Of a stretch of DNA of 64,000 nucleotides, positions 10,621 to 54,220 are shown piece after piece. The position numbers and the translations under genes were made by a program. The notes under the pieces were generated by a model. The model did not search any database. It was not told where the DNA came from and saw only the letters and a list, made by a program, of their open reading frames with translations. Each line of letters opens with the position of its first letter. The first letter of the stretch is position 1. This DNA is from Neoechinorhynchus agilis (Eukaryota > Animalia > Acanthocephala), in the NCBI GenBank assembly GCA_051530055.1, contig CM121341.1:9712784-9776783 (forward strand). Reading direction: 5' to 3'.

Positions 10621-11144
10621 AACAAAGAGGAACTACACAGGTGGATTTTAAAACTTCATATCGATAATCAAAGTTATTGGTCTAAAAATTGAAAGACGAA
10701 TAACTTAAGAATCATAATTGAAGGTATTTAAAAATTGCACGCCAAAATATCCAACAATGCCCATTGTATTGTCTTTCTAAGGTTTTGGTCCTTGCGACTG
10801 ACCAAACGAGAAGACGAAATTTGATTTTTTATGCAAGTGAAATATCGTTGGTTCACCGATATTTTATACAGCTTTCTAAACTTAGAGTTAAAACTGTTTA
10901 GCTCGGACGACGAGTCGAAATTTTTGCAATACTTCAAGCGTAAATAATACCTTCATTGATTTAGACTAGAAAGATTCCAGAGTGAAACGCTGAATTATTG
11001 TTTAATCGACCTTCAAAAAATAAGTCCACTTTAAAGCTCCACGGTCAACTGGCGACAAACATCCTTCACATAATTTTCCGACTCGCCTATATGATTTTTT
11101 ATTGAGGATTACATTCGAGTGGTGGTTAGAGATATTGTTGTTTT

Positions 11145-16821: not shown

Positions 16822-18234
16822 GGAGGAGTTGCCCTTCCAACTTTTAAGTACCTGTTCTATATTTATATTCCCGAAGGAACATTTTTCCTTCTCAGGTCAT
16901 ATGTATGGGTTTTTGGCCCCAAAGATATGGTGGAATAAAATCCTTTCTATTACATTAGTGTATGAAATTTCCCCTATCCAAGAGGCTGCTTTCATTTTCC
17001 AGTCAGTTCTCTTTTTCTCTAAAATTATGTCCCAGAATTTTTCTTCAGAATGCTTGAAATTGATAGATTTAATCTATCGTATTCTATATTCTCCCAATAT
17101 AAATTTTTATAAAATTTCCCCATCCAGTACTGAGAACCCAGAGAATCTCCTTTGGCTTCGCAAATTCGTGCGATGCGGTAGTTCGCTGCATTTGGTCCAA
17201 AAGCACGATTACTCCTAACTGGCCTAACAGTAATTTGTAATTTTTTTGCAGCAATCGATATCATGCTGTTAAATGTCCCCATAGAAACCATACCTTTATC
17301 ATTTATCAGAGATGATAGGGTTTCATTAAAAAGCTTAATGGCCTCAGGACTATAAAAATCGACTTTTGTTCTCAGTCCATAGGAACCTAGAATGTATATT
17401 AGCATGTCATGGCCCATTTTTTTGTTATCAAAAAATTGTCCGGTAACATTTGCCACCAAGTTTAATTCCTTCCTGGAGAACATAAGGTCTAAATAAGAGT
17501 GGGAGTTTTTCGAGTGGAAGGTGGGTGAGCTCGACATATGAACGTTATAGTTCGAAGACTAGTGATTCAGTGCCACTGCTCCATTTGAGTTAAAGTCCCC
17601 CAGTATCAAGTCCGGTTTCCATTCTAGCAACCATTTCTCTACGTTTTTTTGAAGAAAGATATTTTTTGGGCGATATATAAGTTGCCTAGAATGAGTCTCG
17701 CCTGGTTAAAGCCTTCTTCCTTTAAAAAATTACTTATAGAAATTATTTGTATTGCATAGTTTACGGTTTTGGATTGCACTAATAATTTTGGACAGAGGGA
17801 CTTATGAACTGTTGTTTGTAATCCTCCCGAAACCCCATTTTATTATTAGGGGCATTACCATTATTTATAGGGGCTAATACTACAGTAATGTAATCCAAGT
17901 TTTCAATCAGGGGTTGTTCTCCTGTCTCCTGCATACAAAAAATTTTCGTAGAGTCCCAATTTATCGCCTGTTTCAAGAAATTAGATAATGTTGAAATTTT
18001 CGAAACATTATGTTATAATATTAAAATTATGACTTAGGTAATTTATGGGCCTTATCATATTTTGTTTGATCATGAGGTTTTCCCCCTCTTACCTTTCGTG
18101 ATTCCATTTCTATTTGATATTATGTACCCTCCTCTGCTCTTTTTGTAATTTGCTTTTCTGGTTGCGCCACCTTTCCACTGTTACCAGATGTAATTACTAT
18201 TTCCTCTATGTCTGAACTTGATTCTAATGAAACT

Positions 18235-19638
18235 TCACTGCCTTCTCGCTTTCTTAGTTCCGCCTTTAAACTCCCGTTTTCCTTCTGCAGTTCGTCTATT
18301 TTTTTTATCTTTTTTGTCTATTTCACCCATTAATACTACCATTTTTTCGTTCAATTCTTTTATCTTACTTGCTAGGGACTGCACCTCTCTCTCTAAATAC
18401 CTATCTTCATTGATTTCGGGCCAGGAAGTCTGATTGTGCTTAAATCCTACCCAGTCATTCCCTGAAGATGTATCCTTGTTGACACTTTTCCAATATCTTA
18501 TAGCGACAGGACATACTCTCCTGAAACCTTGATGCCCTCCTCCGCACTTGGGGCAACACAGTCTATTATTGCTACTACATTGTTCCTTACCATGGTTTTC
18601 TGAGCAAAACATACATTTGATTTCGTTATTGCACTCCCAGGTTCTGTGCCCCCATTGACAACACTTTTCGCATTGGGTTAGAATGAAATCATGTATTGAT
18701 GTTTTATTTTGACTTGGAAATTCTATCCAGTAAGCCAAAAACGGAAAATTGCGCCCTTTAATTTTATTAATTGTGTCTTGTGTTCTCGCAACTAAAATCG
18801 CATATGAATCCATTGTTGGATTTTTTCTTAAATATTTAATTGGGTCAACGCCAAACACCTTTTTTATCTCCTGGAACTTTTCCTTACTAAGGTCTGGGGG
18901 TGGATTAAGCATAAGAAGAGTAGACCTCCGAGATATATCGTCAAATGTAATTTTCTTTTCCTCAAAAATTCCTTTAAAACTTTTTAAGCCCTCCATTCCG
19001 AAGAAAAAAATCAAAACTACCCATTTGGTGTTCACCACATTTTTAATTTGGGATACCTGCTGTTTCTTAAGCTTACTAGGTTCTAAGAACTTTTTATAAG
19101 ATTCCTTTATTAGACAGTTTATCGTTAAAGTTCCCAAGTTTTCTCTTTCTACTCTTATTCCAAAGTTCTCTTTTAGTCTAGGCAATCTCTGGAATGCTGT
19201 TCCCATCCTCAAGTTACCCAAATCATGGTCGGGGGCAGAAAACCCATTATTACTGAGACCCACTGTTTCATATTCACCCCTTTGCCGACTGTAGACTTGG
19301 TGGGGGTTTGCAAAAACGTTATCCGTCATAACCACCCCTTCTTTATTTTCTGAGCAGTTTTCCTTCAGATTCCTTCTTTGGTGGGGGGCCAGAAAAACAT
19401 TATCATCAATAACCACTTTTTTTTGCGGGTAACTTGGATATCGCACGCACTCATAACTAACCTCAGCAGGATCTTCACCCACTTCCATTCCTCTTTCTAT
19501 AAAAGGTTCCTTCGCATTATCATAATCAACCTCCATCTGACCCGCTCCTCGGTCATCCAGAGGATCGGGGTTCCATAAATCTCGATTATTCGAACTTTGT
19601 GTCAGAGCGCAGTTTTTTAACAAAAAATTGCGCGACAT
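18235..19638 (-). CDS. LINE ORF1 gag-like protein with three CCHC knuckles
   Basis: CEKCCQWGHRTWEC, CMFCSENHGKEQC, CPKCGGGHQGFRRVC. Confidence 0.88.
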   Translation of the reverse strand: MSRNFLLKNCALTQSSNNRDLWNPDPLDDRGAGQMEVDYDNAKEPFIERGMEVGEDPAEVSYECVRYPSYPQKKVVIDDNVFLAPHQRRNLKENCSENKEGVVMTDNVFANPHQVYSRQRGEYETVGLSNNGFSAPDHDLGNLRMGTAFQRLPRLKENFGIRVERENLGTLTINCLIKESYKKFLEPSKLKKQQVSQIKNVVNTKWVVLIFFFGMEGLKSFKGIFEEKKITFDDISRRSTLLMLNPPPDLSKEKFQEIKKVFGVDPIKYLRKNPTMDSYAILVARTQDTINKIKGRNFPFLAYWIEFPSQNKTSIHDFILTQCEKCCQWGHRTWECNNEIKCMFCSENHGKEQCSSNNRLCCPKCGGGHQGFRRVCPVAIRYWKSVNKDTSSGNDWVGFKHNQTSWPEINEDRYLEREVQSLASKIKELNEKMVVLMGEIDKKDKKNRRTAEGKREFKGGTKKARRQ

Positions 19639-19639
19639 G

Positions 19640-20400
19640 TCGATCGTGACATCGTAATGCGTATTTGTGTTCGCTTAGACGTGTAGTTAAACACCGCATT
19701 GTTTCACCTACGTAGGTCATTTCTCTATAGTTGCAAGGAATGCGGTAGACTAGATTCGCAACCGTTTTTTTTCGGGTTTTTTGAAGATGAACGCGATAGT
19801 CGGGGATCTCTTGTGATAGAGTAGAACTGGGCACTTTGAATTTCCTAGGGCCCTGCGAATCAGATTCGAACAAAAAATCGTCTACAAATTCGGTCCTGAT
19901 GATTGTCGATTTGGTCTTGAATATCTCTCTTTCTTAAGTGCCTGTCGGATCGCCCAATATGGGTAATCCCTTTTTTCCAGAATCTTCCAGATATTGTCGA
20001 TTTCACGTTCGCCGCCCCTGCGAATGTTGATGGTTTTGATGGCCCTCCCTAATAAAGATTGTGCTGTTCTGATTTTAAAAGCTCCGCCCCATCCATGATC
20101 ACTACTGTTTTACCTTTGTCTGATTTGGTGATGTCGATGGAGTCATCATGTCTAAGATCGTTGATTATTTTCTGTTGTGCTGGCGTGATTGACGATCTAA
20201 CGTTTTTGCATGCCTCCTAATGATAGCATCCTGAGAGTTCAGCTCTTAGCTATGGGAAGCGTTTAATTATACACATCCGATGTTGATCTCGTCGATTTTT
20301 GTTAAAGGGAAAACAGAGATCCGAGAGATAGAACTTCCCGTTCGGCATCAGTAAGCGGTCTTTTGGATCCAGTTTTATTTTACCCTCCCGTACCTACGGC
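19640..20400 (-). mobile_element. Internally deleted Penelope-like element (RT N-terminal, thumb and GIY-YIG remnants)
   Basis: Minus-strand SIDITKSDKGKTVVIMD (~20090-20150), EIDNIWKILEKRDYP (NGYP-like), NLVYRIPC..TYVGET.R.L.TRLSEH. Confidence 0.8.
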
Positions 20401-30700: not shown

Positions 30701-32136
30701 AATGGAGGCCGTATTTATCCGCCAAGTTTAACGGAAACGGGTGGAGAAAAAGGCGCGAGATTGTGCCAAAATATGGGGTTTAATAAATTGCGCCATAAAC
30801 AAGCCTGAATAGTTCAATCCTCATAAACGCTACAAATTTCATCACTTTTGTGTGCTGTTCTCTTCTTGGCATAAGGGTAAAAGAAAATATTTTACGGTTG
30901 ATATTATCGTTGTGATTGCCACACTAAATAAAAGGGTGTATTATATATTTAAAAAATAATTCCCCTTATCTTATATAGATTCTCGTTTGAACTGGAAATG
31001 GCGATTTTTTGCTAAGATTTATTCCCAGGAATCTTTCCTTTAATTTTCAAGTTTCATTTGTCGTGGCTTCTTCGCGGGACCAATCAGAGGCACAATAAAA
31101 AATTAAATCAGTGAATAGTTTCCGCCATTAACGAAAAAGGATTTTGCTCTCGTACGTTAAATTAATGTACGTTGAGATCGCTCTTCGCCATTTTAAGTTA
31201 AAAGTGCCAACCTTCACGAATCAATGCTGTACATTTTGTTAGCTTTACCTTGTCTTACAATATAACACCGTCCATAAAATTGTAATTGAGCGCTTCCTTC
31301 GCCTCCTTTTCTTCGTATTGGATCTCCCTAAGAGGTTATCACACCGATTTAGATAAATCGATAACTTCAGCAGTTTAAAATATGCGATAATCGATCGCTC
31401 TTAAGTTTTTACAGGTGAGACATCAAGAATCTGTACTTTACGCACAGTATTATAGCCGGAACTTTCCTTCATTTAAGAGAAAGCAGATTGTTGTATTTAA
31501 TTTAAAGTATTTGCGTTCCTTTCCAGCCCTTCGCTACGATTTTCATACTTTTTTATTTGTTCAACATTTTAGCTCTCGCTGCACTGTTCAATAATACGCT
31601 CGACCGAATTCTATTCATTATAAAGTTTAATTTTTAAATGCCTTGATAGCACCCTGAAGTAGTCATTGTTATAAATTAGATCAATCGACTTAGCATCCTA
31701 TGTTTCTCAGAATTCTAAGTGAAAACGTTTCGTTACTGAAAATACATTCTAAACTCAACCGAGTCAAACTTATGGTACTCAGACGTTTGTGATTTGTGTG
31801 GAAGGTTCTCTGTTTATAACAAGACTGTATTTAGTGCAGAAGTTTAATCATAAATGAATTTAGTTGTTCATAGATTAACCTTATCCGTCATATTCCGTAA
31901 CACCGAGTGGCCGCTTAACTCCTTTTTTCCACCTATGCGGCTATATTTGAATTAATGTGATTTTCAAGTACAAAAAGGAGGATAACATGTCGCATTGTAG
32001 TTTAGATTGCGAATAAAAGATACAATGCACTGCTACATTAGAATCAAGCATACATTTTCACACCTAAAAAATATAAAAACACAAACTTCAAGCGCACACA
32101 CAAACATTAGGGATTTAAAAACCTAGAAATGATCCA

Positions 32137-33369
32137 TCAGAGGAAATCTCTGCCTTCCTGTAGATTCATTACATACTCTACCATTCTCCTTTGTTCCTCT
32201 TCAGTTTCCAAATTTATCAATTTTCTCATTTCACTTTCAGCCTCTGTGCCGCCGTTACACCAAGCCTCAGTGATCCGCCGTTCGCTTTTCGAGACCGGAT
32301 ATCCGTCAAGAAACCGAAGATTTTTCTAAATACAAATAACCTCGGAATTGGCGAAAGCATTTAAAATCTAACAATATCGGAAATTAATCGGCGTCTATAG
32401 TCAACCATTCGGTTTCGGCATTCGTTTCCCATTAAATTCACGACACGCAAATCGTCTATCTCATTCAAGTACTTTAGCTCTTGCTCGTCACAAATGTTAT
32501 TGTAAGAAAGATCCACAGAATTAAGCTTGGACAAGTCTTGCAACGAAAATAATCCACTTGATACGCGATTATGTGATGCATCGAGAGATTCCAAATCTTT
32601 CAGGTTCTCTAACGTTTTTTAGAAATTACAAATTGTTTAACGTTTCACGGTTACTCACCTACACCTCGCAAGTCAGTAAGAAAATTATGAGCTATGCTTA
32701 AAATGCTTAAATTTATACAACATTCGATTCCGTCTAAGGATGAGATGCAATTATTTTGCAAAAATAGACATTTTAGATTAATAAGGGATGAGAGATTCTC
32801 AATTCGCGATATGGCGTTATTGTTTAACCAAATCGTGGTGAGGCCCGTATATTCCTCCAAATTTTCTATCCGGCGGAATCCTACAAAGTATTTGATAAAA
32901 GTGCCACTTTAATAGAATTACCTTTGTAATGAAGATAAATAACGCGATTGAGCTCTGGAGTTGAATAAAGACCGTTTTCCTTGCAGCTTTGCCTCAGGAC
33001 TTCTCTCGTGATCTCCGGCGGTTTGTATAAGTCTTCGTTTGGGCTTTCAACAGATGGAACGTCTTCGACCATCAAATTCACGCTTTGAATGCTAAAATCG
33101 TCAATCGAATTGTTGCATTCCTCAATAGGTTTTTGTTGTTGATACAAATCTTCAAGACTAAGCATCGACCGATTAGAATCCTTCTCTTCATGACCAAAAC
33201 GCTTCATTAATCTCTTAAAATAAATCCTATTTCTCACATCTTCATCCTGCATCAAACACATTGATGATTTTTTGGAACAACACGTTTCGTCCACGAGCTC
33301 AACTAACTCACAAATTATTTGTTCAACTGTTTCAACAACGTTGCACTGCTCAATCTCCATAATGAACAA
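32137..33369 (-). CDS. DNAAF1: Dynein axonemal assembly factor 1 (LRRC50/ODA7), 4 exons
   Basis: CKENGLYSTPELN..YLHYKG|FRRIENLEEYTGL, LRRs, LRVVNLMGN..YRRR, NLRFLDGYPV..ER..EAW..GG; GT-AG introns ~41-50 nt restore the frame. Confidence 0.9.
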
Positions 33370-33559
33370 CCGAATATTTTCGTTTTATAACCAACAAGTT
33401 GCTTGGCAACGTCAAAAATATTGTCAATCAAAGATTAGCGTTCGCATCGAGATTCAATTTCTTATTGGAAATTGTTTTGTGAGTTAGTTAACCTCGTCCA
33501 AAGAATCATCAATGTGTTTGATGCAAGAAAACATATTTTATTGAAAGATACGGGATCTT

Positions 33560-35340
33560 CAACTTTGCCATCACCCTGATACCAACTCACCGAAGATTGG
33601 AATGAAGTATGATGGTGATGATATTAGATTGCTTTTGATCCTGGATGTATTCTGGGATAACAAGATAAAGGTTGCGGTCACTATCAACCGTTGTGAGTGG
33701 GAAATGGTACTATGTACAGGAGCGGCAGTAACGGCGTTGAATAACGAACGGTGGATAAAATGAGGATGTCCAAAATTCGAGACGTCACCGAACCTAGTAA
33801 TATATGGAGGGGAACATTTGGATACTCTGGGTAAGGCTCAGTTTGAAGTCGAATACATGGGAAGAAGATCTAAGTTATGGGCTGTGATTGTTCGAGGGGC
33901 GAAAACATTATTATGCGGGTTACCTTGGACCCAAACACTGCAGATACAGATTACAGAAGATATATATCGGTCCCACAATTGGACAATTTAATTATGAAAG
34001 TATGGACGATTCTATAAGACAATACTGAGATATATTCTCAACCAATAAGAATGGTGGTATTAAGGGTTTCAAGGTAAACCTAAGGATTGATGAAAATGCG
34101 ACACCAAAGTTGTATTCGATTAGGAGAGTACCATTTGCTGTGATCGAACAGGTTTCGCAAAACTGATGCAACTTCTGTGCCAATTTCAAAGTTATTCTCA
34201 ATCCGGTGTTAAACAGAACTCTCACCTGATTCCGACAATCAACGAAATGCTGGGAAAGATAGCGCAGGGGAAAATTTATTCGAAACTGGACCTCAAAGCA
34301 GTCTATACACAACTCGAGATGAGTGAAGAATCAAAACGGTTGCTCAACATTTCTACGCCTGAGGGATATTATCGTTATCGAAGAATGCCTTTCGGTTTAA
34401 TATCTGCTCCATTTATTTTCCAACGTTTCATGGGTGAAAATTTGAATATTGACAATATCGGTATTTATCTCAATGACATCATAGTATTTGGTATAGACGA
34501 ACAAACTCACCTGAGGACACTCGAAGAAGTATTGAAAAGGTTGCGAAGTGCGGGATTAGTCCTTAGAAGAGATAAATGTGTATCAACGTAATAGGAATGG
34601 TTCTCAAACAAGGACGTCTTCCCATCACAGGAAAAGATTGAAGCGATACTCGAATGTGCCAACCTGAAAAATGCTAAAGAATTAAAAACATTTTTGGGCA
34701 CAGTTGGGTATCACGAGAGGCATTAATGGTAAAAGTCCGGTCGCTGAAGGTATTCGATCAGAAATCGGAGACGTTATTAACGTGTGATGCGAGCGAAAAT
34801 GGACTGGGGGTCTGTTTAATGCTACAAAGTAATAACGGATTATTTCCGATCGCTTATGGGTATGGAAGGAAATTCATTATTATGACTGATCACAAACCAG
34901 TAACACACATCTTGGGTCAAAAGATAAAATTCGCGAAAGTAAGCAGTAACCGTTTGATACGCTCGGTGTTGTGATTATTGGAATACGATTTTGTGATCCA
35001 AAAAGGAAAAGGGAATAGATATGCGGATATGCTATAGAGATTATCAAAGGATGATGCTATTACGGAAAATCACGAGAGCTCAATTAATGCGTTGACTGAG
35101 AGTTGAGACCAACGAAGGAAATATTGAAAGAAGAAACAAAAACCGACAGTATTTTATCAAAAATCCGCCAATACTTTAAATATGACTGGTCAAACTTTTT
35201 GGGAAAAAGAATTCAACACTTTCCATGGGAAAAGAACTGAATTTTCGTTGGAAGATGGCGTTTTTGTTTTGGTTGGGAAGGATGATTAAACTGACAAGTC
35301 TTATACAGGTGGTCTTAACATGAAATAATTGGGGACCGGA
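33560..35340 (+). mobile_element. Decayed Ty3/Gypsy pol (protease, RT, RNase H remnants)
   Basis: LCTGAAVT (DTG-like), YSKLDLKAVYTQL..TPEGYYRYRRMPFG..SAP.IFQR..YLND, LTCDAS..GLG, TDHKP. Confidence 0.88.
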
Positions 35341-35353
35341 AGGATAAGGGAGC

Positions 35354-35975
35354 TTATGTAAGGAATTTCAGGAGGTGTTCTGGCGGTCTGCCTCTAGAGA
35401 AGAAGACAAGGCCCGAAATGTCCCAAGAATTCCAGACCGATTTGATCGCGTTTAGTCCAAGACATAGACTAAACGCACTTTTGGCTTGGATTCTGGCAAT
35501 CTTCAGCAGTTTCTTGAGCTTAAATATGTCGTGCGTAATACTCAAATGAATACTGAAAGTATACCCCAGAATATCAATCTTATTATAATGGGGGAGGCTA
35601 TCCAGCTTAAAGAAGTCCGAGCAGAATTCTCTGGCTTTGCGTTTCCCTAGCACTGATTTAGATTTTAAAATAAATTTAGTTTTGTTGGGATTGAGCTCGA
35701 GACCCATCCGAGAAAGCTTCTCAGTGAGAAAGGAAAAATAGGCTGGATAATTTCGAGATCGCATCCATATAGTTAAGCTCCTTGATGATGACCGTCAGAT
35801 CTTCTGCATACCAAGTGACAGAAGGGCATATTGAACAGTTCTGGTTGACTCTGTCAAATGCTATCTTGATATCAAAGGAGATTAAGATATTCATAGGTCG
35901 GACACCGTTAGAAAAATTGCTAATTATTTCTCTTATTGCTGTGAGCACAGATTTCCCGAGTAAAAAGCTATGGCA
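35354..35975 (-). mobile_element. LINE RT fragment, same clade as the 15.4-19.6 kb element
   Basis: HSFLLGKS, SFDIKIAFDRV, WYAEDL, GLELNPNKT, ILGY; ends FFSRGRPP like FFGRGRPP in the 15445-16821 ORF. Confidence 0.82.
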
Positions 35976-37296
35976 GCGGTTATCGATGCATGGTGGTGCT
36001 CATCAGGCTTCGGATTCGTATTCTCTTTTAGACACATTCAATGCGGGAGATCCTACAAAACCTTTTCATGTGGTTACTCTCGAGTTGGATTCGAGAGAAG
36101 TCTCGGTTGTTAGACTGGATGTTTCGGCCGGCCATGGTGTAGGCGCGTTTCCTTATGATCCTATCGGGTTAAGCATCCTATCTAGAGGCAGTCCTTATGC
36201 TAACGATCTAACTATAGTCCCCCGGCAAAGATGGAGTGATGGAGCTATAGTGTCGACTTGTAATTGTAGCGCATCCCCAACCTTTATGGGTCGCTTCGAC
36301 TTGAAAAGGGTCGATGACGGCGTTAGGATACTCTACGATCAGGATTCGGCGTTCTATTTTCACGCGTTGGTAGAATTGCAGCTTGTACGAGTCGAGGAGT
36401 CGTTTGACTCTTATCGTTTACCAAAGGTGCTCGAATTAAAGGAGTTCTATTATCCCGATTGTCTAGCGGGGTTTTGAGTGGGGCTTAGTGCATTCAATGT
36501 TCTTATGGACCGGTGACAAGCCTCTGTACTCGATTTTCATCTTGACTCTAGACGCGCGTTGGGGAACCCTCCTGATGGTCGGGCAGGTATGACTACCACT
36601 ATATTCGGTTGTATAACCACTATGTGGGGTGAGGTGGCCTCATTTGCGCTAGCCAGAATGATGATGGTTGAGGGGTCTCTCTCTAAGCATGGGCGCAGAA
36701 CAATAGAGTATTGGCATTACCTCACCCACATATTCGATGATCCTTTGAAATTCTCAGGCTTGACTTATGATGCGGGCGGTGCCAGGGTGTCCATGTGTGC
36801 CCCTGAATATTTCAGGTTCACTCTCGATGATGAGGTGTTAGCTCGGAAATTCTTTAACACCAACTTAATTTGGTGCTTAATATCGGTAAATCGGGACTTC
36901 TTGATGCTTAATGAGCGTGAACCGCTACCTAGAACTTTCTAAACTCGTTTCATATGGTACCAGGTCGCAGGAGATGAACGACAGAATTACTCGATGCGCG
37001 GTGTCCCCCTCTGGAGGAATGTGCCTACCGGGTATGATGTCGTTAGCGTGCGTAAGGGTCCTGCATTGGATCTCAAAGCTCATTACGGGATACGCTATCT
37101 CCATGTTGCTGAGAAGGTCAGTTTTGTTGAACGACCTGGCTTTACTAGTCTCATCGGTAGTACTGTGGCATACGGTGAGGAATTGCGGCGGGAAAATTAC
37201 ACACATTTTACCCGACAAGCTCCTCAATCCTCTCACACGGTAAGCGACCGGGTAGAGGAGAAGGGCGAGCCGGTTGGCGAGGATGTCGATGCTTGA
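35976..37296 (+). pseudogene. Putative capsid ORF of an endogenous totivirus-like element (one frame, 3 in-frame stops)
   Basis: ORFs 35782-36477, 36559-36942 and 36994-37296 share one frame, broken by TGA ~36475, TGA ~36517 and TAA ~36940; capsid identity inferred only from position upstream of the RdRp-like ORF. Confidence 0.55.
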
Positions 37297-38420
37297 GGGC
37301 GTGGCAGTGGCGAACGGACACAGCGTTCGCTAGGTTGGTCCTTTCTTTCCATCGGGGTATGGTTGGGAGAAGACGCGTTAGGCCTTTGGGGCCTATTGCT
37401 AAAGATGTGCGCCCGCAGTCCACTTGGAGTGTGGTGTCAGAGTTGCTTCCTGCACCCTCCCCAAGTGAACTCGCTTCTGCTGTTCGCGTTATCAGAAAGT
37501 ATGATCTGCAAGCTTCCCCAACTGAGGTCGCAGCCCTTATCGGTCCTTATTGACGACAGAGGTTGTTGAAACCGATGGGCAGCTCTTGGATCATATGGGC
37601 AGACCTTCATGCCTATCCAATTTGATCATGGCCATTGAATGCATATATTGCTTCACTCGCTATTGTCGTGCCACGTATGCTGCGAGTGCTCTCGAGCTCA
37701 AACGTTGGTCTGAAGGGATTGGCCCCGATATTACGCTATGGAAGGATAGTGTCGTGACCGAAGTCATTTCGTGGTCTTTATTCAAGGATCGTTTGAGTGT
37801 TTCGAATTATAAACCGCTCTCACAGGGCACGCGATGCGTGGATTGGGTTGAACGTGAGGCGGATGTCTCTCCCAGATTCATTCCTCCTAAGACTAGATAT
37901 GGCGCTCGAGCCCGGGATCTATTTCCTGGTTGTCCTTGCTTCGTGCGTTGCGTAGATCTCGTTGCTCATTCTGGATACTGCCAGGTTCTGACATGGTTGC
38001 TCGACTCGTTATCTTCCTTTCATTATTTTGAAGACTGCATCGGGTGGTTAAAGTGGGTGTCGTCCGTCGCCAAAGCCAATGCGCGATCGTGTCCTGAAAT
38101 GGGCATGCTGGTAGATGTTCACCGTTGGTTTGGCCATTTTCCTTTTGAGGATAGGGAAGGGGCTCTCCGCTCCACTCGAGGCTGGTTGGGACGCTTGAAT
38201 GCACCAGCGTTGTGCTCTCGGCCTGATATGTGGGAGCGTATATGCTATGTTGAGGCCGTGGCATATTTGGAGGCTACGTTCCCGTCTACTAACGTTGATG
38301 AGGCCTTGGTCCTTAGAGATTACTTTTCTCTTCGTACGTGGTCTACCACGGGGGCTTCCAATAAACATACCTATGTATCCGCGCCTACGCTCCCTGGGGA
38401 TCGTCTTCCGAAGAGCCTCA
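37179..38420 (+). pseudogene. N-terminal part of totivirus-like (Ghabrivirales-type) RdRp, frameshifted and truncated
   Basis: LKWVSSVAK..LVDVHRWFGH (LK..S..K..L.E..L.GR-like motif 1 region), DYFSLRTWSTTGAS (W..R.W...GS motif 2), RLPKS; core SG/GDD motifs absent. Confidence 0.65.
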
Positions 38421-39500
38421 GACTTTCTGGCCAGTAATTCGGTCCGGACGGAATTTCTTAGCCGGTCCAACCACTTCCTGATACAAACTTCGAAGAACAA
38501 CATTATCTGCAACTGTTGGCATCCTTTTTGACTATCACTTCAATGAGGTGCTCGGTACCTGAATTGCAGTCGAGGGCTTGGACGCGTATGAAAGAGGAAT
38601 TTGGCGAGGGTCCAGTCGCTCCTCGCCAATCTTACAATGGGCACAACAATGCCCAAATCCGACGAGCACCAAATGCACTGATTGCGCACAAACCGACCAC
38701 TCGGCGGATAAATGCCCCAACAAAGGCAGCAACAAATGATATGCCAATTGTAGCGGAAAGCACTCTGCTTTCTACAGATGGTGTTCACACTTCAAGAAGT
38801 ACTGGACGTGGTTCCAAAAGCGTCAGGCGGAACATGCAAGCTCGTTTCTCTGAAGCGATCGCAACCATCGAGAGGAAGATTTGCACCCTCCTTAACAATA
38901 TATTCAAGCTTCCTGACCTTCTTGCTTCATGTGCCCCAATCCAAAAAATCCAAAAAACGTGTTCCTTCAACAAAAAGCCCCGGCCCGCAAAGGAAGACAT
39001 GAGACACGAAAATCAAGAAGCTTAACGATGTAGCGGAGGACAACAATGACTATCATATGGAGGTCGAGGAATCGGACAACGAGTTTGTTTCAGCTAACAT
39101 CGGAATCCAAAAGGATTTGATCAACATAGGCACAGCGGATCTAATCAGGAATGCCTCAGCCAGGAAACCCTGATGGCTCCTATCAGGTATTAGCGGGAAT
39201 ATTTGGGTGCTGCAATGGAACTGTGGTGGGACGACTAATCTCAGGAAGTTCGCACGTTTTCTACTCGGAGTGTCTATATTCCTTATTCAGGAAACGAACC
39301 GCATCTGCAATTTAGATTCTCTGTACCCTCATCTACCTAGTCGCATCGTCACTCACATCTAGTAATCAAAGCTTCGTCGAGGCGTCAAGCAAGGGTACCC
39401 GCTTTCGCCATATTTATTTGCATCCGCCATCGACCCGCTTATTCGCGAATTGTCAACATCGGGGGAGGGAGTCCGAATAAGATAACGGTTCGTGGTGTTC
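38420..39500 (+). mobile_element. Decayed LINE: ORF1 zinc knuckles, APE N-terminus, RT remnant
   Basis: Manual translation: CTDCAQTDHSADKC, ANCSGKHSAFYRWCSHFKKYW, VLQWNCGG..FLIQET, GVKQGYPLSPYLF. Confidence 0.8.
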
Positions 39501-40129
39501 GATCCGTTACTACTGGGTCATTAAATCTTAGGTGTATTGAAGAGCAGTGGATGTCAAAGCTGAAGAAACTCCTGAGCTTTTGAAATTGCTATAGGTCGGT
39601 TCGGTTTTTAGCCAAATGGACCATCATCACGGTAAAGAATGTCGGCACGCAAGATTTCGCGAATTGAGACAAATGACAGAAGAGGATGAGAGACGGTCCC
39701 ACCACCATGATTCGACAGTGCTGATAACCGAGCAGGAGGAAGAGATGCAAGTTCAGGAACAGGAACCCGCTGACCCATATGAAGGCCTTAGCACCCTCTG
39801 CTGTAAACAGCCCATTTTTAAAGGATGCTTTTGAATTTACGGTGGATCGGGGGAGATGGTTGTTGGAAAGGACTACTTCGTAAATCAATAATCGGTGACT
39901 GAAGAAAGAATATAAAGAATACACATTGAAAACGTCGGACTGAGGCAAAGAGGATGGTGTATTATCAATCTCGTGGAAAATCGAAGATCAAGATTTTATG
40001 GAAAAATTAGCTAATGATATCGCATTTCAACTAACTGGAAAACGGACGAATGCGCTTCATAAAACATCATTGTAATCGTGTTGTTAAAGTAGAATAAAGC
40101 GTCCACATTGGCAGGCAGCTCAATTTATA

Positions 40130-41146
40130 CTTTTCATGGAAAAACATTCGGAGGGATCGGTATTCGTGCCAGCTCAGCCATTGCGCTTCCAGCCTTTCTA
40201 TCGTCTCTTAGTAGGTCCAAGCGCCTTTCCAGATTGATTTTGAGACATAATTTTGAGGAGGACATCAGCCTGGAGCCCGCTCTTCATCTTTGGATGTCCC
40301 TGTCTAACCTCGACAAGATTCAAGACCTCCCGGAAAACAGAAATCGTGGGACATTCCGTTAGTGGAGCGTGTTCACACCTCACTTTTTGACTCGCTCTCC
40401 GACGTGGATAGAACGCGATTAACTGCAGTTTCCTGCAAAGAGTCCGGCGCCTGGTTGAAAGCTGTACCATCAGCAAATATCGGTTCGAGATTAGACGGCG
40501 AGGCTCTCAGAATCGCAGTGTCCCTAAGGCTCGGGCTCCCGGTTTGTATCCCTCACACCTGCCGATGCGGGACGGAAGTCGACCGCTCGGGTAGGCACGG
40601 TTTAACCTGTAAACGCTCAAATGGCCGTTTTGCTAGACACACCGAAATAAACGCATTGCTGAGCCGCGCTTTGAAAACGGCTAACTCTCCGAATATCCTC
40701 GAGCCTAGCAATATCTGCAGGATCGATGGGCGTAGGCCGGATGGAGTTACCGTTTTTCCTTGGAGCAGGGGCAGATGTCTAATATGGGACGCAACATGCG
40801 TCGACTCCCTTGCAGCCAGCAATCTGCGAGATGCATCCTCCGGGGCTGGGGGAGCCGCATCAGCAGCTGAGCTTCGTAAGGTTGCAAAATATGCTGATTT
40901 TACGAATTCTCATCATTTTGTCCCCTTCGCAGTGGAAACCTTAGGAGCTTTCGGGCGTGCGGCGAGGAGTTTTGTTTTCGAACTGGGGCATCGACTGATC
41001 AACTCGACCAATGACAGGAGGGCTCGCTCGTTCCTAGTGCAGAACATATCCTTGGCTATCCAGCGAGGAAACGCAGCGAGTGTCTTGGGGACGGTGAAGG
41101 ACAATTCAGAATAATAAATAATAATAATAATAATAACAATAAAAAA
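40130..41146 (+). mobile_element. CRE-like retrotransposon 3' part with intact 250-aa CCHC-RLE frame and (TAA)n tail
   Basis: GGIGIRASSAIALPAFLSS; ESGAWLKAVP..CRCG..HGLTC..RH..RRPDG..WDATCVD..VETLG..IQRGNAAS; TAATAAATAATAATAATAATAATAAC tail at ~41112-41138. Confidence 0.9.
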
Positions 41147-43340: not shown

Positions 43341-45243
43341 TACCTTGAAAGATTTTCAGAACTTGATCCCGGGATAGAATAGATAACCCTTTAGTTTCAG
43401 ATTATCGCAACCATGTGAGCCGAACTCGATTGGCAGTAGTTTCTACTGCAGGATTGAATGCTTGGCCCAGCGCTCACCCAGTAGCTTCTATTGGTAACTT
43501 TAGTTTTCGAAAAACTACTTTAAACAATAACTTGTAGGTGATTTGAAAATATTTCACCCGAGTGTGCCAAGAATCAGTTTTGTTCATTCAACGCATTCAT
43601 AGATTTTCAAACTGATCAATCAATTCAAACCTTAACGTGTTCGCTTTTATAAATTATTGGTGAACTAGGATCACCCAAGTAAAAGTCTTGTGTTTAGTAA
43701 TCTTGATTTTAAATCAGAACCGAATGGAGCTTTCTCAAATTCCATTATTTCAGCCTCAAAGACAATAGCAGATGGAAAACATGAAGATGTAACAGCGATG
43801 GAGTTCGCTGGTAAGGAAATAGACTGCCAAAATAACCATAAAGATGCATTCGGAGAAACGGAAATTCAGAGACGGCGACTTATGCATTCATTCCATAGAT
43901 CTTATTTCAAGCGGATATATCAATTAACGTTGTGGGAAATTTAGTTGCTAGTTGCTGTCATCTCTCACTGTCTCCATCTATGACCATGTATTTTTTAAGC
44001 CATGTTCTTTTAACAAATTCGGAAATCGGAATTCCTGTTCTAAAGTATTGAAATCTGAGAAGATGATAATGTTTTCGAAAAATGCGTAAAATTAACCTTT
44101 CTTAAAGATTCATCTTAACGCCAATTGATATTTTCGTTTTGCGCCCATAGCTCTCATCATAAACATCGGTATCTTAGTTTAAATAGAAAACGTTTGCATG
44201 ATCTCACATTTCTAGCGTAAATCCAAAAGTTGTAATATTATTCCACATAAAAGACCATGTTAATTAAGCTAAATATTGAGTTGCTTATTGCTTCATTCTA
44301 AAACTTCGACCAAAGATTTTTAAAAAAATTATTATAGCAGTATTAAAAAATTTATAAAGAGGTTATTGAATCGAAAAATTAGGCAGCGCTTCTAAACAAA
44401 TATTATTTTAATCAGATCCTCATAAATTCCTAACAGGCTTTGAATGCTGCGATTGAGTTTATTCACAAAATCTTATCTCCTTTAAATTTTGTAATTGCAT
44501 TTTTCTAAACTCAAGGGGTTTGTTATCCACTAAGGCGTCACCCAAACCCAAGAAAACGAATATTAAAACTTTTGGAAGGAAAAATACCCGTAGGATTATA
44601 TAGATCGGAGAAATCAAATACCCTGATCCAGTGTAAGAAATATTATACGCATTGTTCCACTAACTAATCAGTAGAGTTGTTCACGCTGATACTCTTAAAG
44701 GGCCAATTTTGTTCCTTACTTTCCATTTTTTATCTTAGATTTGATTTCTTTTTTCATCATCCAAACCCTTATTCGATTGCGTACACCAGCAAGCACGGAT
44801 TAGTTGTAATTGAAAGCTGGCAATTCACTCGGCTTTGGGGTAAGTACCAAAATACTTTACCAAATGCTCTGCAAATGACATTTGTTTGATCGTTAATACA
44901 CAAAAGCTGCTATAAACCTGAAAGGATTGATAGTTCAAAGGTAAAGGTATAGATTAGGTAGCTGAATGGCTCAAATATAACGGCGCACGTTGGCATTTGC
45001 TGTGGAAAAAGATTTTCTTTGGCAAAGAAAAGAACTTTGCGGCGAGAAGGCAGCCCATTACTACTTTTTCAATACCCCAATCCTGTTTCAATCGCAATCG
45101 GCTCTTCTGGAAACCAGAACTCTCAAACGACTTAACTGCGCTCCAGATTCACCCGGCGGTTAAATTGATTTCGCTAACGCGATTTATTCATCATATTCCG
45201 TATTCCCGTGCTTTTGGAGTGTAACGAAGAAATACTGAGGGTG

Positions 45244-47600
45244 ATGTACCTTCTCTTCTTAATTTCAACTCGATTGGTCATTGGACAATGGAAAAATTTA
45301 ACACCAATCGTTAACACAACCTCTGGGCGTATTCGAGGACAAGTGAGGGAACTGAATACAATATCATTTAGTTTAAACGAGTCTCTTGAGAACAAGAGAT
45401 TGGTGGTTTATCAATATACTGGAATAAGGTATGGGCGAATAAATCCGCGATATGGAAGATTCATGCCTGCCATGCCTGAGTCATATTCCGAGCAACTTAT
45501 CATGGCAACGGAAACAGCAAGGTCTTGCTGGCAACCAGTTGATCAAAACTTTAATAGATTTCACGGAGTCGAAATGTGGAATGCTGTTGAAAGTGAAATG
45601 GAAGAAGATTGCCTCCATTTGAATATTTTTACGCCATCGGGACGGAAAAATGACCTTTATCCAGTTGTCGTTTGGGTCTTCGGAGGATTTTTCAATACGG
45701 GATCAATCAGTCTTAAAGTGTACGATGGTGCCTACTTAGCAGGTCTTAATGATCTTGTCGTGGTAAGTATAAATTATCGATTATTGACGAATATGGTGTA
45801 TTTGGGTAAATTCTGAAATCACCATATTCTCAGAAGGACCTTTTGGTTTTCTGTATCTTGATTCAAATCGAGCTCCGGGGAATACTGGTCTAAATGATCA
45901 GTTACTAGCCTTTCAATGGATTCATGATAACATTTACCAGTTTGGTGGAGACCGAACTCAAATAACGCTGATGGGCGAGAGCGCAGGCGCTATGAGCATA
46001 TCTTATCATTTGCAAGCTCAAAAAAGTTGGCCCTACTTTCAAAGAGTGATTCTACAAAGTGGGAATTTCTTCACCCCTCAAGCCTTTTCATCTCCATCTA
46101 AAGCACTTGAACAATCTCTTGAACTGGCTTTTGCAGTCGGTTGCCAATATGATGAAATCGACAACATTATTGAATGCCTTCACCATGTCCCTCCAAAAAA
46201 ATTGGTCGGAGAAATGGGTAACCTTAAATGTGACAATCTTCTATGCATGCCATTTGTACCGACTCAAGAGTGTTCAAATGGGCCGCTCATACAGACGGAC
46301 CCACGAACATCAAAGTCAAAGGAGATAAGACCAGAAGTTGAAATCATGATGGGTACCAATAATAACGAAGCTTCAGCCTTTCTGGTTTATGCTCTCAATT
46401 TCTTTTATAAACTTGAAAATATTAGTTTTCATTTATTTGACTATCGACCTCGATCTATGAGCAAGGAAGCTTTTAAGAAATTTATGAAGTTCCTCGTTTC
46501 ATTAAATGACGACAACGGCGATGCGATTGATTTTTATTGCCAGAATATAGCTTTGGATGGAAAGAGCACAATGAGGCGATACTCATATTTTGATCGAATC
46601 GAACACTGTGTAGCGGACTATCTAATCAACTGCCCGACTAGACGACTAATGGATTATTTATGCTAGTAGTGGTTAACAGAAGCAAAACGAAGGCAGTGGG
46701 TGGTTTTGTGTAGATTGGACATCTCAGAAATAGGAGGGGTTTTCTTAGACCTTTAGAGAGCAAGTACGACACCGAAGTGATCAAAAATCGGAATATGTCA
46801 ATGCTACACATCGTTTTCTTACAAATGCGATGCTTAGTCGAAATAATATACCTTTCCTTGGTAACGGCAATTCTTAGCTTTTCCCTTAAGGTTGCTAATT
46901 ATTTACTCCCAGCTCAGGAACGTATTTTCGAATCGACCAATGGGATTAAATGTTACGTAGAGTATTGTTCACAGTACGATTTCTTTTATTTATGCCACAT
47001 TTAGGATTTAAAAATAGCAAGAAGATCGTTCGAACTTAAAAAATGTAAATTGAAAAGTTGTTCAAAAATTCACCCAAAATAAAAAAATTCCGTCGATCTA
47101 TTTTTGGCATAAATCGTTTTATCCTTAAAATCAACATTTTATCGCTGACCACTGTACTGGCCAAACGACATCCAAGAACGTTCCTGTCTATATGTATGCA
47201 TTCGACTACCGCTCGTTCCAAGGAAATCCTTGGCCTCATTGGATGGGAATAATTCATGGTTACGAAATTGAATTTGTATTTGGGAAATATCTGGATGCAA
47301 ATCGCAAGTCCGATGTTGATGACATATTGGTAACCAATCGTTTAATGCGCTATTACGTTAACTTTTTTCGATCTGGGTAAGTTTATAACGAATGTAGTAA
47401 AAAATGCATCATTTGATTTTTCAGTAATCCGAATGCGCAGAATCGGACGGAAAATGAGTTGTTAAAATGGCCTCGTTGGGCTGATAATTTCGAGTATTTA
47501 AAAATAAACAAGGGGCTGAGTATTGAAAAAGATTTTAAGCCCACTGAGTGCTTCTGGTGGAACAACATCTTTGATGCTATTAGGATCAAGAGAGGTTAGA
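45244..47600 (+). CDS. ace: Acetylcholinesterase-like cholinesterase, multi-exon, two junctions irregular
   Basis: Signal peptide, EMWN (W84), EDCLHLNI, GESAG Ser (45980), NNNE Glu, WMGIIHGYEIEFVFG His (47255), GNPN, C-terminal C..W. Confidence 0.85.
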
Positions 47601-48356
47601 ATGAAGTAGGGGAGGGTTCGGTCGATTCATTAATCAATATATCCAGAAAAACCAGAGGGTAATAACCGAACACGAACGGGATGTTTAAATAATCTAGCTA
47701 ACAAGATTTGGATTTCTTTCAAATGCCTGGCGATCACAGTGTATATTGTTATTGTTTTATGATCCTAAAATCAGATAGAATAAATCGTATCTATTTTCTC
47801 GATCGACAGTAAGCGGATAAAAGAAATTTTAATACATGGCATATTTCGATCCAAATTGAATTTGTTAAAGCCATGAAGTCTATTCTGAATCATTTAGCAT
47901 CGACATTTAGACTTTTTGAATATCAAAGCGCTCAAAGTTCCGATATGAACGGCGAAACATCTTTATCCTCCATTGCAACCTCGGGTTTCAGTATTCTTCG
48001 AGTAAAATAGTTGGCTGTGTCCCAAATTGAACCAGAAAAAGGCCTTGTAGTTTATTCACGATCAACATTTTCACGCGTTCGTCTTCGGGAGAAAAAATAT
48101 TTCCTTTCATTGTACGAGAAAGCTTTCAAACAATGACAAACCCTGAGGAAATGTCGGAATTATCCGACGTGAAATATCGGGGAAACAAATAAGTAAATTT
48201 AAATCTGGAGTGGCAAAACTACCAAAAGAAAGTATTTGTCTATTTTTCTCATGAAGAGAAAAGGAGCGGAAGACTTAAAAAGGGATTCGTCCAATGTGGA
48301 TCTAATTATCAATTAAGTCCGCAAAAACGTTTTCATTTCGTTTCAGATTGGTGCCG

Positions 48357-50665
48357 ATGATAAAATCAATTATCGAAACAATTGAACGTCGAGTTTGTGC
48401 CAAATGCACAAATCTGCTAAGTGGCACTTTCAAAATGGGTCCACTGAAACAACCCAGTCAGCAGCCTGCGTGTTTCCTTTGCCTCGGATTGCTTGATCCG
48501 ATTGTTCAGAAGAGATTCGAGCAGCAATTGGTTGATAGCCTGCAAAAATTTTCATCTCCGACCTTCAATCTAAGCCTTCGTCTTTGTTTCTACACGAGAT
48601 TTCGGGAGTCTCTTTTGGAAAGGTGCTTCTTAGAAGCGTTTCCCGATTCGGTTGCGCCTCAAATTGTGGGGATGGTCAAAACTGCATTTAAAGATATTTA
48701 TCTCGACGTAATAGCAAAAAAATTGAATTCGCGAGTTGATCATAAGGTCCGCGAGTATTCCATATGACTAAAAACTCATTTTGAGATATAGTCGAAATTT
48801 ATTGTGGTTATTAAAGGAAAATGTCAAATCAAGGAAAACGATATGAAGGAATTGTAAGTTATTTCCATTAATTTGATGGATTATTTTCTCGGTTTCAGGT
48901 TTTCTATTTACAAAAATAAAATGAAAAAGGTTACCAATCGAACATCGGTGTGTGAGAATAAAACGAAAAATTTAGAATCTTAAATTCAAAACTGATGAAG
49001 TAGAAAGCATTTCAGCTGGAGAAATAGAAAAGATTTTATCGGATTGTAGTGAAAGTGAATTAATTAGGTACTTATTACCTAATCAATAAGTTCGAATAAC
49101 GCTATAAACATAGATTTATTCAAGAACAAGTTGTCGACCATTCGGATTTCAGTATGGAGTTTCAAACGCCGCCAGTTTTTATTGCTGGTAAGTTCTTGAA
49201 TTCGTTTTGCCTTAACCACAAAATGCTGCTGTAAAGGTCGATACTTAAAACTGTGTCGGACAATTCCACAAACTCCGTGGTTCGATAAAAAATCGAGAAT
49301 TGTTGAGTGTTCAGTGCAAGAAATTATTACGGCCCCAATAAAAGAAATACTTGACCATAAAGGTAAAAATGTGTTTCCTTGTTGAATTACTTTTTCCTGT
49401 ATTATAAACTTAGTTTCTCTTCAAGAGAAAAAACTGAATTACTCCCCTCTTTTTGTTATAGAAATGATATCTAAAATTTAAATCCTTTTTCATATTTCAT
49501 CATATGTATTTTTTCTTTTGCAGTTGATAGCTGTTAAAGGTTCAAGATTGTGATAGCTTCATTTTTATTTTTAATTAGAGTGAGAGATTCCTACACTGAA
49601 CCAACTCACTATTCTTAAAAGCGAATGGAGAGATCAGTTAAGTGAGCTACTAATCAAAAGCGCATATTTCTCGACCTTCAGAGTATCCGCGAACATCCCA
49701 CTAAATTTAGACATTTCATTCCTCTCCTCGGGAAGAGAAGACAGCGACGTTCTCATGCTTGGAAAAGGTAATTAAGCCTTAAAAATAATTTCTCATTAGA
49801 TGAGTTTCAGGTCGCCCATTTGTTCTTACCTTAAATAACATTCTGAATTCCAATTTACCGCATGCGTTGGAACTTCAAAAGGTATAATACATTTCTGATT
49901 ATTTTCAATACATTCTCCTTGTAGTCTATAAATGCCTCAACGAATCTTATAAAAGTTCGCGATCTTCAGTACAAAGAAGAGAGGTACTCTTTTACGCATA
50001 AATATGGTAAAATCTTTTCCTGGTTATTAAAAGTGAGGATTCATTGAGACGGATGAAAGAGGGAGAAATGTCTAAGATGAAGCTCTACACTGCTTATTGC
50101 TTATGCCGGTCGTCAGCGATCACAGAAGCGGATTTCGACTTGATGAATTCTATTCAGAATCTCAAAATAATACAGAGGACTCCTTTGCGTGTCTTACATC
50201 GGTACTTTAACCTTTGCTATGGCATAAAATGCAATATCTTTGCACAACTTCGATCAGGCGATCTTTAGTTGATCGAACACGCCAAATTTATTCGATGAAT
50301 GCGGAAAAGCTAACAGATAATTGTTTTATCCTGAGGTTAAAGACTCAAGCAGGAACGTAAGTAGATCTCTCGAATGTTAAAAACATTCATAATAAGCAGT
50401 CTGTGATAAGGTATATAAAAGAGTTTATTCATAGTGATATCGGGCGAACGGAGCCTTCCTTATCTTCTTTACTCGATAAGTCCATTGACATCATGTTTCT
50501 TGATGTTGATGTTAGTTAAATGCAACTCGATCGCACATAATCGCTATAAATCCCTAGGCTGTAGAATTTTCTTTTCCTGAATATACGGATGCTGATGATT
50601 TATTCAGTGAAGAGTGTAAAAAGTTGAGAAAAGAGACTATCAATAAACTGTTGTCATGTTTGTGA
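48357..50665 (+). CDS. PUS10: tRNA pseudouridine synthase Pus10, many short introns
   Basis: CxxC zinc pairs, FIAGRYLK..RTIPQTPW, SGREDSDV..LG.G, QRTPLRVLHR, LKTQAGTYIKEFIH.D.GRT.PSL, DIMFLDV; start codon uncertain. Confidence 0.88.
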
Positions 50666-52580: not shown

Positions 52581-53563
52581 TTCGCTTTATTGTTGTACGT
52601 TTTTTTAACACACTAAGCGTGCTGAATCGGATTGGCCATATCAGAGTTCTAGTGAAATTTGGTAAATAAATTACTGGTTATTATGCCCTAACGAGCGTGC
52701 TTTTGAAAGCAAGTGAAAATCGATTTTATGGATATTTTCGTAAACATATTTTGCAATAGGTTAGGCGTGTGAGTTACTTTAAAACATAATTGAAATCTTC
52801 TTCTAAACAACAAAGAAGCATATTATTGCAATGCTGTCAAAAAATCTCGAGTGCAGACTTTAGTGATATATTCCCCTACCAATTGTATTTTGAGCAATTA
52901 AATCTCTCTAAGAAATTTTACCATGATAAGTTGCTTTTTTAGCAGTTGTTTCGACTGAGAAAAATAATTGTCTATATTCCGTTTGTATTTTAGTAAAATT
53001 ATAATGTCGATTATTACATTTTGTTCCATGTTACAAAAATATTTGCTTGTATTACCACTGGTTTTTAATTTTTTCTTTTTAAGAAGTCAAAATACCGCGA
53101 GTGCTGACTATTTTTTGATTGCTTTATCAATTGTTCTTTAATTGGAAAACGTTCTTTAGAAAGTTGTATATTAAGTGCCCTATCTATTTTTCTGTTTTTC
53201 GCCTTGGAAAAATCATTGTCGCTGTTCTGTTACCGTTTTTCCTTACCAATGGCCTTTTAACGGTAAAATATAAAACCGCACTGTTTTTAGCAGTGGCTTT
53301 CAATTAGAAAAATCAATATCTGTGTACTGTTTCCGTTTCCAATTTTGTAAATTAATCGATGGAATCGCTATTGGGAATTGAAAATAAAATTAGCCCGGAC
53401 TACAATAACGACAAATAAAAGTGAGGATCTAGTTTTCGATAATGACAATGCGACGCTTTGCTCACCTCAGTCTCACTTCAATGAGCAATGAAAAACTTTT
53501 GAGTCTTAGCAAAACCTCAGAAGTTCGTTCTTAGTCGAAAAAGAATACCTAGCATCAAGCGCG

Positions 53564-54220
53564 ATGTTCCCTGAATACACCCTTTATTACTTTGATCTCG
53601 AAGGACGAGCTGAAGTTATACGACTAATGCTTCATGCAATTGGTATACCATTCACGGACCTTAGATTTGAAACTGAAGATTGGCCTTTGAAATATAAACC
53701 CGTTATGCCATTAAACAAAGTTCCAGTTCTCAAGGTAGACGATGAAGTCCTGTGTGAAACAAGCTCGATAATTCGATTCCTCAGTAAAAAGTATAACTTG
53801 AATGGAAAAACGCGAATTGACGCTGCACGTTGCGATGCAGTCCTTTTGATCGTTGATGAATATTTCTCAAAACTTATACAAGCTTTTCAAGTCCCACCTA
53901 ATGAAAGCCCAGCAAGGCAGCAAACGTTTTACGACGAGGAAATACCGAAATCAATCGCTCTACTTGAAAAATTAGAGCAGCTCTATGGGAAAGGTGGTTA
54001 CATAATCACTGACCAATTGACTTGCGCAGATCTTTATGTCTACTACTATTTTCGAACAATTCATTCCTATTTACGCAAAGAAGCCAAAAGTGAATTTGTC
54101 TCTAGAAATAAGAGAACGGTAGAATCGGTTCCGATTTTGAAAGAGTATTTTGCAAATCGTTGGTCAATTGAGGATGTATGGAAGATCATTGATCGGGTTT
54201 ATTCGAGTTATTCTCAATAA
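53564..54220 (+). CDS. gst: Glutathione S-transferase (sigma-like class), intronless
   Basis: LYYFDLEGRAEVIRLML, P..KVPVL.VD, ETSSI.RFL..KYNL.GKT, LTCADL. Confidence 0.92.
   Translation: MFPEYTLYYFDLEGRAEVIRLMLHAIGIPFTDLRFETEDWPLKYKPVMPLNKVPVLKVDDEVLCETSSIIRFLSKKYNLNGKTRIDAARCDAVLLIVDEYFSKLIQAFQVPPNESPARQQTFYDEEIPKSIALLEKLEQLYGKGGYIITDQLTCADLYVYYYFRTIHSYLRKEAKSEFVSRNKRTVESVPILKEYFANRWSIEDVWKIIDRVYSSYSQ

Follow-up and report, generated by a model that had tools for sequence, protein, structure and literature searches.

The window, by which we mean the whole 64,000-nucleotide stretch of DNA that was analysed, comes from the acanthocephalan Neoechinorhynchus agilis, and an NCBI gene model of this species is identical to it (100%) over 247 aa. 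Host genes in the window include a divergent forkhead factor (12164-12727), an acetylcholinesterase-like esterase (45178-46666), a PUS10-like gene (48306-48767) and a glutathione S-transferase (53510-54220). A leucine-rich-repeat gene lies on the minus strand at 31900-33400; spliced contigs confirm its introns of 41-50 nt, the 3' part of the gene occurs in many copies in the DNA reads, and we take the gene to resemble the dynein assembly factor DNAAF1. Next to it on the plus strand, at 33545-35200, is a decayed Ty3/gypsy-type pol (RVT_1 E 1e-20, RT_RNaseH E 3e-8) that is also found in low-depth RNA contigs. The minus strand also carries two longer elements of LINE-like type, at 15445-19674 and 55180-57925, both containing RT domains. 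Three 3'-end copies of a high-copy retrotransposon (2929-3510, 9977-10651 and 40308-41114) carry a CCHC motif and a PD..D nuclease-like region, presumably of the restriction-like endonuclease type. The depth of this retrotransposon reaches 10,000 in the DNA run X1, and its copy at 40308 has no match in Pfam.

Among these elements, at 35991 to about 38416, lies an insert of different composition. The GC content of 35991-38430 is 50% compared with 39.5% in the remainder of the window, in agreement with the GC-balanced stretch described in an earlier reading made from the sequence only, and 0.50 is the highest value among the 2.44-kb windows measured across the window. That sequence-only reading placed the element at 35976..38420. 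Homology stops at about 38414-38425, and the true left end is 35991, as everything up to 35990 belongs to a multi-copy repeat.

The downstream frame of the insert, ORF2 (37526..38416, plus strand), encodes the pre-palm N-terminal part of a toti-like RNA-dependent RNA polymerase (RdRp), as identified by phmmer, a virus-only profile and Foldseek against BFVD. Free of stops between 37526 and 38437, the frame spans 303 codons, a length reproduced by none of 20,000 shuffles, and it contains all the peptides that had been quoted as polymerase-like. Its counterpart in toti-like RdRps is the N-terminal ~40%, to which it is homologous. A phmmer search of 1.84 billion proteins gives nine matches at E<=1e-3, namely three N. 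agilis gene models, five toti-like RdRps (E 6e-13 to 2e-4) and one repeat protein. The viral matches are a 963-aa protein (E 6e-13), toti-like virus 3 of S. solidus (SsTV3, E 1.5e-10), Triaenono virus 1 (E 1e-6) and a pair of Molossus totiviridae 1 proteins; PF02123 (RdRP_4) is present in four of the four full-length RdRp matches. The best non-host matches are PF02123-bearing toti-like RdRps and not a retroelement or cellular protein, which bears out the proposed viral origin. A profile built exclusively from the five viral RdRps finds ORF2 with E 4e-33, while the runner-up among the 1,601 ORFs of the window has E 2.9. ORF2 is 25-30% identical to the exogenous viral RdRps over the region they have in common, and it has no match in Pfam, PDB sequences or word-index homolog searches. 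A further word-index search covered proteins of 1,687-4,815 aa, and its lack of a match is uninformative. Two matches were rejected as chance: the repeat protein, which is of low complexity (E 6e-15), and a tblastn match of a LINE piece at 37494-37607 on the minus strand (E 5e-4, 5-kb database).

A Foldseek comparison, one of the checks proposed for the element, points in the same direction. An alignment-guided model of ORF2 (pLDDT 57, core 76-91) has one match in BFVD at E<=0.001, a viral protein of 953 aa (E 1.6e-4). This is also the polymerase length of MN803435 in the available text of PMC10819564, an agreement in length that is suggestive only. Against solved structures the best Z of the same model is 5.1, which is helical noise. 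The single-sequence fold of ORF2 has a pLDDT of 36 and no Foldseek matches at E<=0.001, and in the ESM Atlas ORF2 finds weak clusters only, below the threshold for recognition.

In the alignment, ORF2 and its relatives share the block AKA...LVD..RW.GH...WL...RxWxTxG. The L.GR motif, typical of classic totivirus-type genera, had been expected, but it is not conserved here and the common block has LVD..RW.GH instead. The palm motifs A-C (DxSxFD, SG and GDD) are absent from the insert, which ends at the KTKN motif of the relatives, about 130 aa before their motif A. The assignment to RdRp thus holds for the N-terminal part but not for the palm. As the palm was lost by truncation, the fragment is not a functional member of the toti-like viruses, and its placement in the order Ghabrivirales rests on its relatives. 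Judged from its sequence, the fragment is unable to encode an active polymerase and unable to replicate. A C-x-x-C at 37630-37650 (ORF2 residues ~37-41) is common to the N-termini of most relatives, which bear further Cys/His about 60 aa beyond it; together these could form a metal-binding element upstream of the RdRp core.

The sequence-only reading could name no family for the element. However, its relatives can be named: they are the unclassified, cestode-associated toti-like group of SsTV3 and its kin, in which the N-terminal RdRp region is homologous and shows the conserved blocks given above. Where their genomes are described in the available text of 10.1101/803247 and PMC10819564, they have two ORFs with the RdRp second, and one Molossus virus genome encodes proteins of 1,456 and 1,042 aa (PMC10819564). 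In our tree, SsTV3 from a cestode and the Molossus viruses from bat liver come out together (support 98/97), a grouping also found in PMC10819564 as far as its text is available, and this suggests a helminth host rather than the bat. The tree has 173 columns and 8 rows, with 3 near-duplicate rows left out. As it includes neither a wider Ghabrivirales sample nor the palm, it does not fix the rank or the sister group. SsTV3 and its kin differ from the window copy in being exogenous and having a complete palm, while the window copy is truncated and decayed DNA in a different host group. The SsTV sequences are not present in the genome of their host, according to the accessible part of 10.1101/803247. 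We would not place the element in Totivirus, Victorivirus or Giardiavirus, as no classified member is among the nine phmmer matches and there is no Pfam coat match. For cestode and trematode Ghabrivirales, two new families have been proposed (PMC9241645, available text). Planarian toti-like viruses, described in the accessible part of 10.1101/551184 as using a +1 frameshift, are not found among the nine ORF2 matches.

Upstream of the polymerase frame is a second long frame, ORF1 (35991..37296, plus strand), which has three premature stops and is probably the C-terminal part of a capsid protein. It runs from 35992 to 37293, 434 codons, with a TGA at 37294 and internal stops at 36475, 36514 and 36940. 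The ~440-codon frame with three stops that had been reported is therefore real, and none of 20,000 shuffles gives such a frame with at most three stops. ORF1 is 5'-truncated and has no start of its own because the ATG at 35986 belongs to the flanking repeat. As had been said of it, the protein resembles nothing recognisable: it has no match in Pfam, among PDB sequences or, in a word-index search, among proteins of 784-2,235 aa. A search for a related locus in viral contigs and metagenome contigs gave no match. One minor X1 contig lacks 329 bp within ORF1 (36275..36603, joint 36274>36604). Its depth is 14.8 compared with 112 for the contig of the full insert, and it is likely a deletion allele.

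Could ORF1 be an unrelated neighbour, such as a decayed transposon or host gene, with only ORF2 viral? The lack of an ORF1 homolog fits this, as does the homology across 37300-37550, which is not significant. However, the composition of ORF1 is that of ORF2. Only two of the 13 frames tested, ORF1 and ORF2, combine T>A on the coding strand with a third-position A of at most 0.18, and both differ in composition from the 11 host and transposable-element frames. A codon model trained on ORF1 chooses the ORF2 frame in nine of ten windows over 37510-38320. Further, ORF1 and ORF2 lie within one single-copy contig without a repeat boundary between the frames, the second frame likely begins in -1 relative to the first, and the relatives have two ORFs with the RdRp second (10.1101/803247, available text). 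We therefore consider an unrelated ORF1 unlikely. From its position and composition, ORF1 would quite probably be about the last third of a capsid ORF.

The two frames do not join directly. The second frame had been described as overlapping the first, but the motif-bearing frame (37526-38437) does not overlap ORF1; instead, a third frame bridges the two. This middle frame (37179..37553, plus strand), recognised by its codon periodicity, is -1 to ORF1, overlaps the end of ORF1 and is likely where ORF2 starts. At 37330-37510 it is the frame chosen by the codon-position model that was trained on ORF1. As the middle frame bridges ORF1 and ORF2, it is most likely that ORF2 began in the -1 frame and that a frameshift has occurred near 37530-37550. 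In a targeted profile comparison the middle frame could be aligned to the N-termini of the relatives, but with E 44-50, which is not significant, and neither BLASTP nor Pfam gives a match for it. Signals for translating ORF2 in the parent virus were sought around the overlap. There is no canonical in-frame slippery heptamer (the sole heptamer, at 37190, is out of phase), no AUGA or UAAUG was found at the ORF1 stop, and no stable hairpin is present downstream of the overlap (fold z -1.3).

The insert is single-copy in host DNA. In X1, a 2,500-base contig covers 35961-38460 with no differences at depth 112, while the unique neighbouring sequence 32813-35076 has depth 129; both ends of the insert contig run into repeats. 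X3-X5 come from a second study; no record lists them as RNA, but they are RNA, because spliced contigs of the neighbouring host gene are present in them. The right junction is crossed, unspliced, by contigs from X4 (37733-38688, no differences) and X5 (37776-38697, with a single difference that lies in the flank). Read support for both junctions had been asked for: the right one is thus crossed by contigs of the second study, whereas the left one is supported by X1 alone, where the overlap is 30 bases, under the 31-base bridging rule, and X1 is possibly the source of the assembly. Near-identical insert sequence occurs in five runs from two studies, one possibly the source of the assembly. The element is thus present in separate individuals or samples, as an inherited element is. 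No joint marking an empty insertion site is among the joints listed.

To the left of the insert, just beyond the left LINE, the X1 (depth 129) and X5 contigs join 35111 to 35319 in opposite strands, and X1 also joins 32254>35122. This suggests an inversion, a duplication or a local mis-assembly at 35111-35320 and 32254-35122, outside the insert.

An assembly chimera, or contamination by sequence of the fish host, of its gut contents or of another organism sampled together with the worm, would have to be weighed since the worms come from fish intestine (PMC12256650, available text), the reads contradict the assembly close by (35111>35319, 32254>35122) and two paralogs of the element sit on small contigs of 59-61 kb. 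However, the depth of the insert matches that of single-copy host DNA, and an RNA virus would be absent from DNA reads. Contigs of the second study also enter the host repeat across the right junction with 0-1 differences, and the locus sits on a 19.4-Mb scaffold. Such an origin is therefore highly improbable. With its three stops, both ends cut and the deletion variant, the insert shows marks of decay, and we conclude that 35991 to about 38416 is very probably a toti-like endogenous viral element (EVE) of an acanthocephalan.

The RNA contigs of X4 and X5 run on into the host repeat, which shows that their source is the EVE and not a live virus. No contig of X3-X5 covers 36012-37415, which proves nothing, and X2 has a contig at 36369-36775. 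In the same RNA runs the Ty3/gypsy remnant close by is covered too, at depth 3-7, and the signal of the EVE may therefore come from read-through or from carry-over of DNA. Among the contig ends listed, none extends from ORF2 into a palm domain; there is thus no sign of a live virus, although this is not proof that one is absent.

In the annotation, ORF2 is part of the hypothetical protein ACOME3_002283 (37595..39025, plus strand; its protein maps to 37595-39022), in which it is joined to an ORF of the right flank through a predicted intron at 38334-38495. This intron is not supported, as the X4 and X5 contigs run unspliced across it and no matching joint is among those listed, and the splice is likely an annotation artefact. 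Besides ACOME3_002283, three gene models of N. agilis match ORF2: ACOME3_010426 (78% identical), ACOME3_010452 (38%) and ACOME3_010467. They are alike in holding the same RdRp N-terminal region in the same host, and the window copy, ACOME3_010426 and ACOME3_010452 form a clade (support 95/94) that is 23-30% identical to the exogenous viruses. Since frames are open at 38% identity, it is likely that at least two distinct parent viruses were captured in N. agilis, rather than one insert decaying. ACOME3_010452 and ACOME3_010467 are each on a 58,976-base contig and are identical for about 350 aa, after which they differ; both lose their likeness to RdRp about 20 aa after RxWxTxG, nearly at the end of the window copy. 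ACOME3_010426 contains frame changes and gaps. As far as 38414, its tail can be matched to a different frame of the window (E 0.19, weak), beyond which it runs on, and this copy may extend further than the window copy.

These open frames raise the question of whether the element is a domesticated gene, with the RdRp N-terminal domain expressed as a protein, for instance a dominant-negative antiviral factor. In favour, ORF2 has 303 codons without a stop and ORF1 contains three, RNA contigs lie over ORF2, and the 38%-identical paralog ACOME3_010452/_010467 likewise has an open frame, whose end is only a few residues away from the same motif. However, the contrast between three stops over 434 codons and none over 303 is not significant, a frameshift is likely at the start of ORF2, and ACOME3_010426 is frame-changed with gaps and may run further. 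We find domestication very unlikely. If the element plays any part today, it would be at the RNA level. PIWI and ping-pong piRNAs are retained in N. agilis, which has no cellular RdRP (PMC12256650, available text), and this makes the EVE a plausible candidate source of piRNAs.

The sequences on the two sides of the EVE are different elements in opposite orientation. The left flank (35320..35990, minus strand) is a degraded, multi-copy fragment of a non-LTR, LINE-like RT. It is recognised by weak Pfam RVT_1 matches (E 0.07 and 0.03), by tblastn matches to the LINE RT of the window at 15445 (E 7e-4 and 0.004), the first of the two longer elements being related to it, and by a summed contig depth of 800-1,600. 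Five contigs of other copies of this repeat diverge directly after 35990, and by hand reading of a loose-end consensus these copies run past 35990 in frame with the RT. As the other copies continue, the break in the LINE here falls within the RT and coincides precisely with the viral junction; this LINE also has internal deletions relative to them. The right flank (38431..39550, plus strand) was defined by depth and six-frame reading as a mosaic of repeated LINE-like pieces, including an ORF at 38462-39025. Depth climbs from 112 to 185-1,300 starting at 38431. Two ORFs of this flank have no match in Pfam, but we assume its LQWNC start to be endonuclease-like and its motif RRGVKQGYPLSP to be RT-like. 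There is no target-site duplication, the longest word common to both sides being 5 nt, and no A/T run of seven or more within 34900-39700.

Viruses of the toti-like kind are RNA viruses without a DNA stage, and a host reverse transcriptase would therefore have made the DNA copy. We suggest that the RT of a host LINE copied the viral RNA in a germ-line cell, and that a template switch during target-primed reverse transcription would have joined the copy to the 5'-cut end of the left LINE, leaving the viral part antisense to it. The parent would have been a monosegmented dsRNA virus with ORF2 in the -1 frame. With neither target-site duplication nor 3' poly-A present, the likely mark of a LINE-mediated retrocopy is this direct join to a 5'-cut LINE, and because of it we lean slightly towards the template switch as the route of capture.

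Alternatively, the same EVE could have entered the genome when viral cDNA was used in double-strand-break repair, or through the RT of an LTR element, with the LINE pieces inserted or fused later in this repeat-rich region. This would account for the lack of target-site duplication and poly-A and for flanks that are unrelated and opposite in orientation; these differing flanks, together with the deletions in the left LINE, mean that a later rearrangement could have made the junction. A Ty3/gypsy remnant is close by (33545-35200), and EVEs without a signature of retrotransposition are described for an isopod in the available text of PMC4231630. The coincidence of the cut in the LINE RT with the viral junction, past which the other copies continue, speaks against this route, and we hold it to be the less probable one, though a real contender. 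Taken whole, the reading as a toti-like EVE, including the capsid nature of ORF1 and capture by an RT, is probable.

Elements of this general kind have been described before. According to the accessible part of PMC4231630, the toti-like EVEs of the isopod Armadillidium vulgare are partial, have decayed ORFs and are in some cases near a non-LTR RT. Those EVEs are IMNV/Artivirus-like and nearly all single partial ORFs, while here two ORFs are found in order and, unlike in the isopod, one end adjoins a cut LINE directly (PMC4231630). For the acanthocephalan Pomphorhynchus laevis, rhabdo-like RdRp EVEs are reported among 'hypothetical' proteins (PMC12548735, available text). They are from negative-strand Mononegavirales and are located on unplaced contigs with uncertain host assignment, in contrast to the window EVE, which is toti-like, on a 19.4-Mb scaffold and supported by reads (PMC12548735). 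We found no toti-like virus or EVE for Acanthocephala in the accessible text of the open literature; relevant records may be contained in the supplementary tables of PMC12548735 or of PMC9241645. In the available text of two N. agilis genome and transcriptome papers (PMC12256650, PMC12690905), viruses occur at most in the titles of references.

That fragments of RNA viruses lie amid retrotransposons in invertebrate genomes is already well known. Here, however, the host group is apparently new for this toti-like lineage. Almost nothing has been published on the viruses of thorny-headed worms, as the accessible text of PMC12548735 says for P. laevis, and the element provides genomic evidence of a toti-like lineage infecting the germ line of an acanthocephalan. 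An EVE ties the virus to the worm and not to its fish, which metagenomes cannot do. ACOME3_002283 and three other 'hypothetical proteins' of N. agilis are viral fossils, and the EVE can be used as bait for the live virus in existing RNA-seq. It can be speculated, as a tentative extension, that acanthocephalans have an undescribed toti-like dsRNA virus lineage of their own at the level of genus or family, related to the cestode group, that at least two distinct members of it were captured by LINEs in N. agilis, that the captured RdRp segment is transcribed from the flanking retroelement sequence into piRNA precursors, and that the virus against which these are directed may still circulate. If true, this would amount to an antiviral memory passed on by inheritance, in a parasite with PIWI/ping-pong piRNAs but no cellular RdRP (PMC12256650, available text). 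In this lineage, with both piRNAs and small-RNA data, immunity from EVE-derived piRNAs is directly testable.
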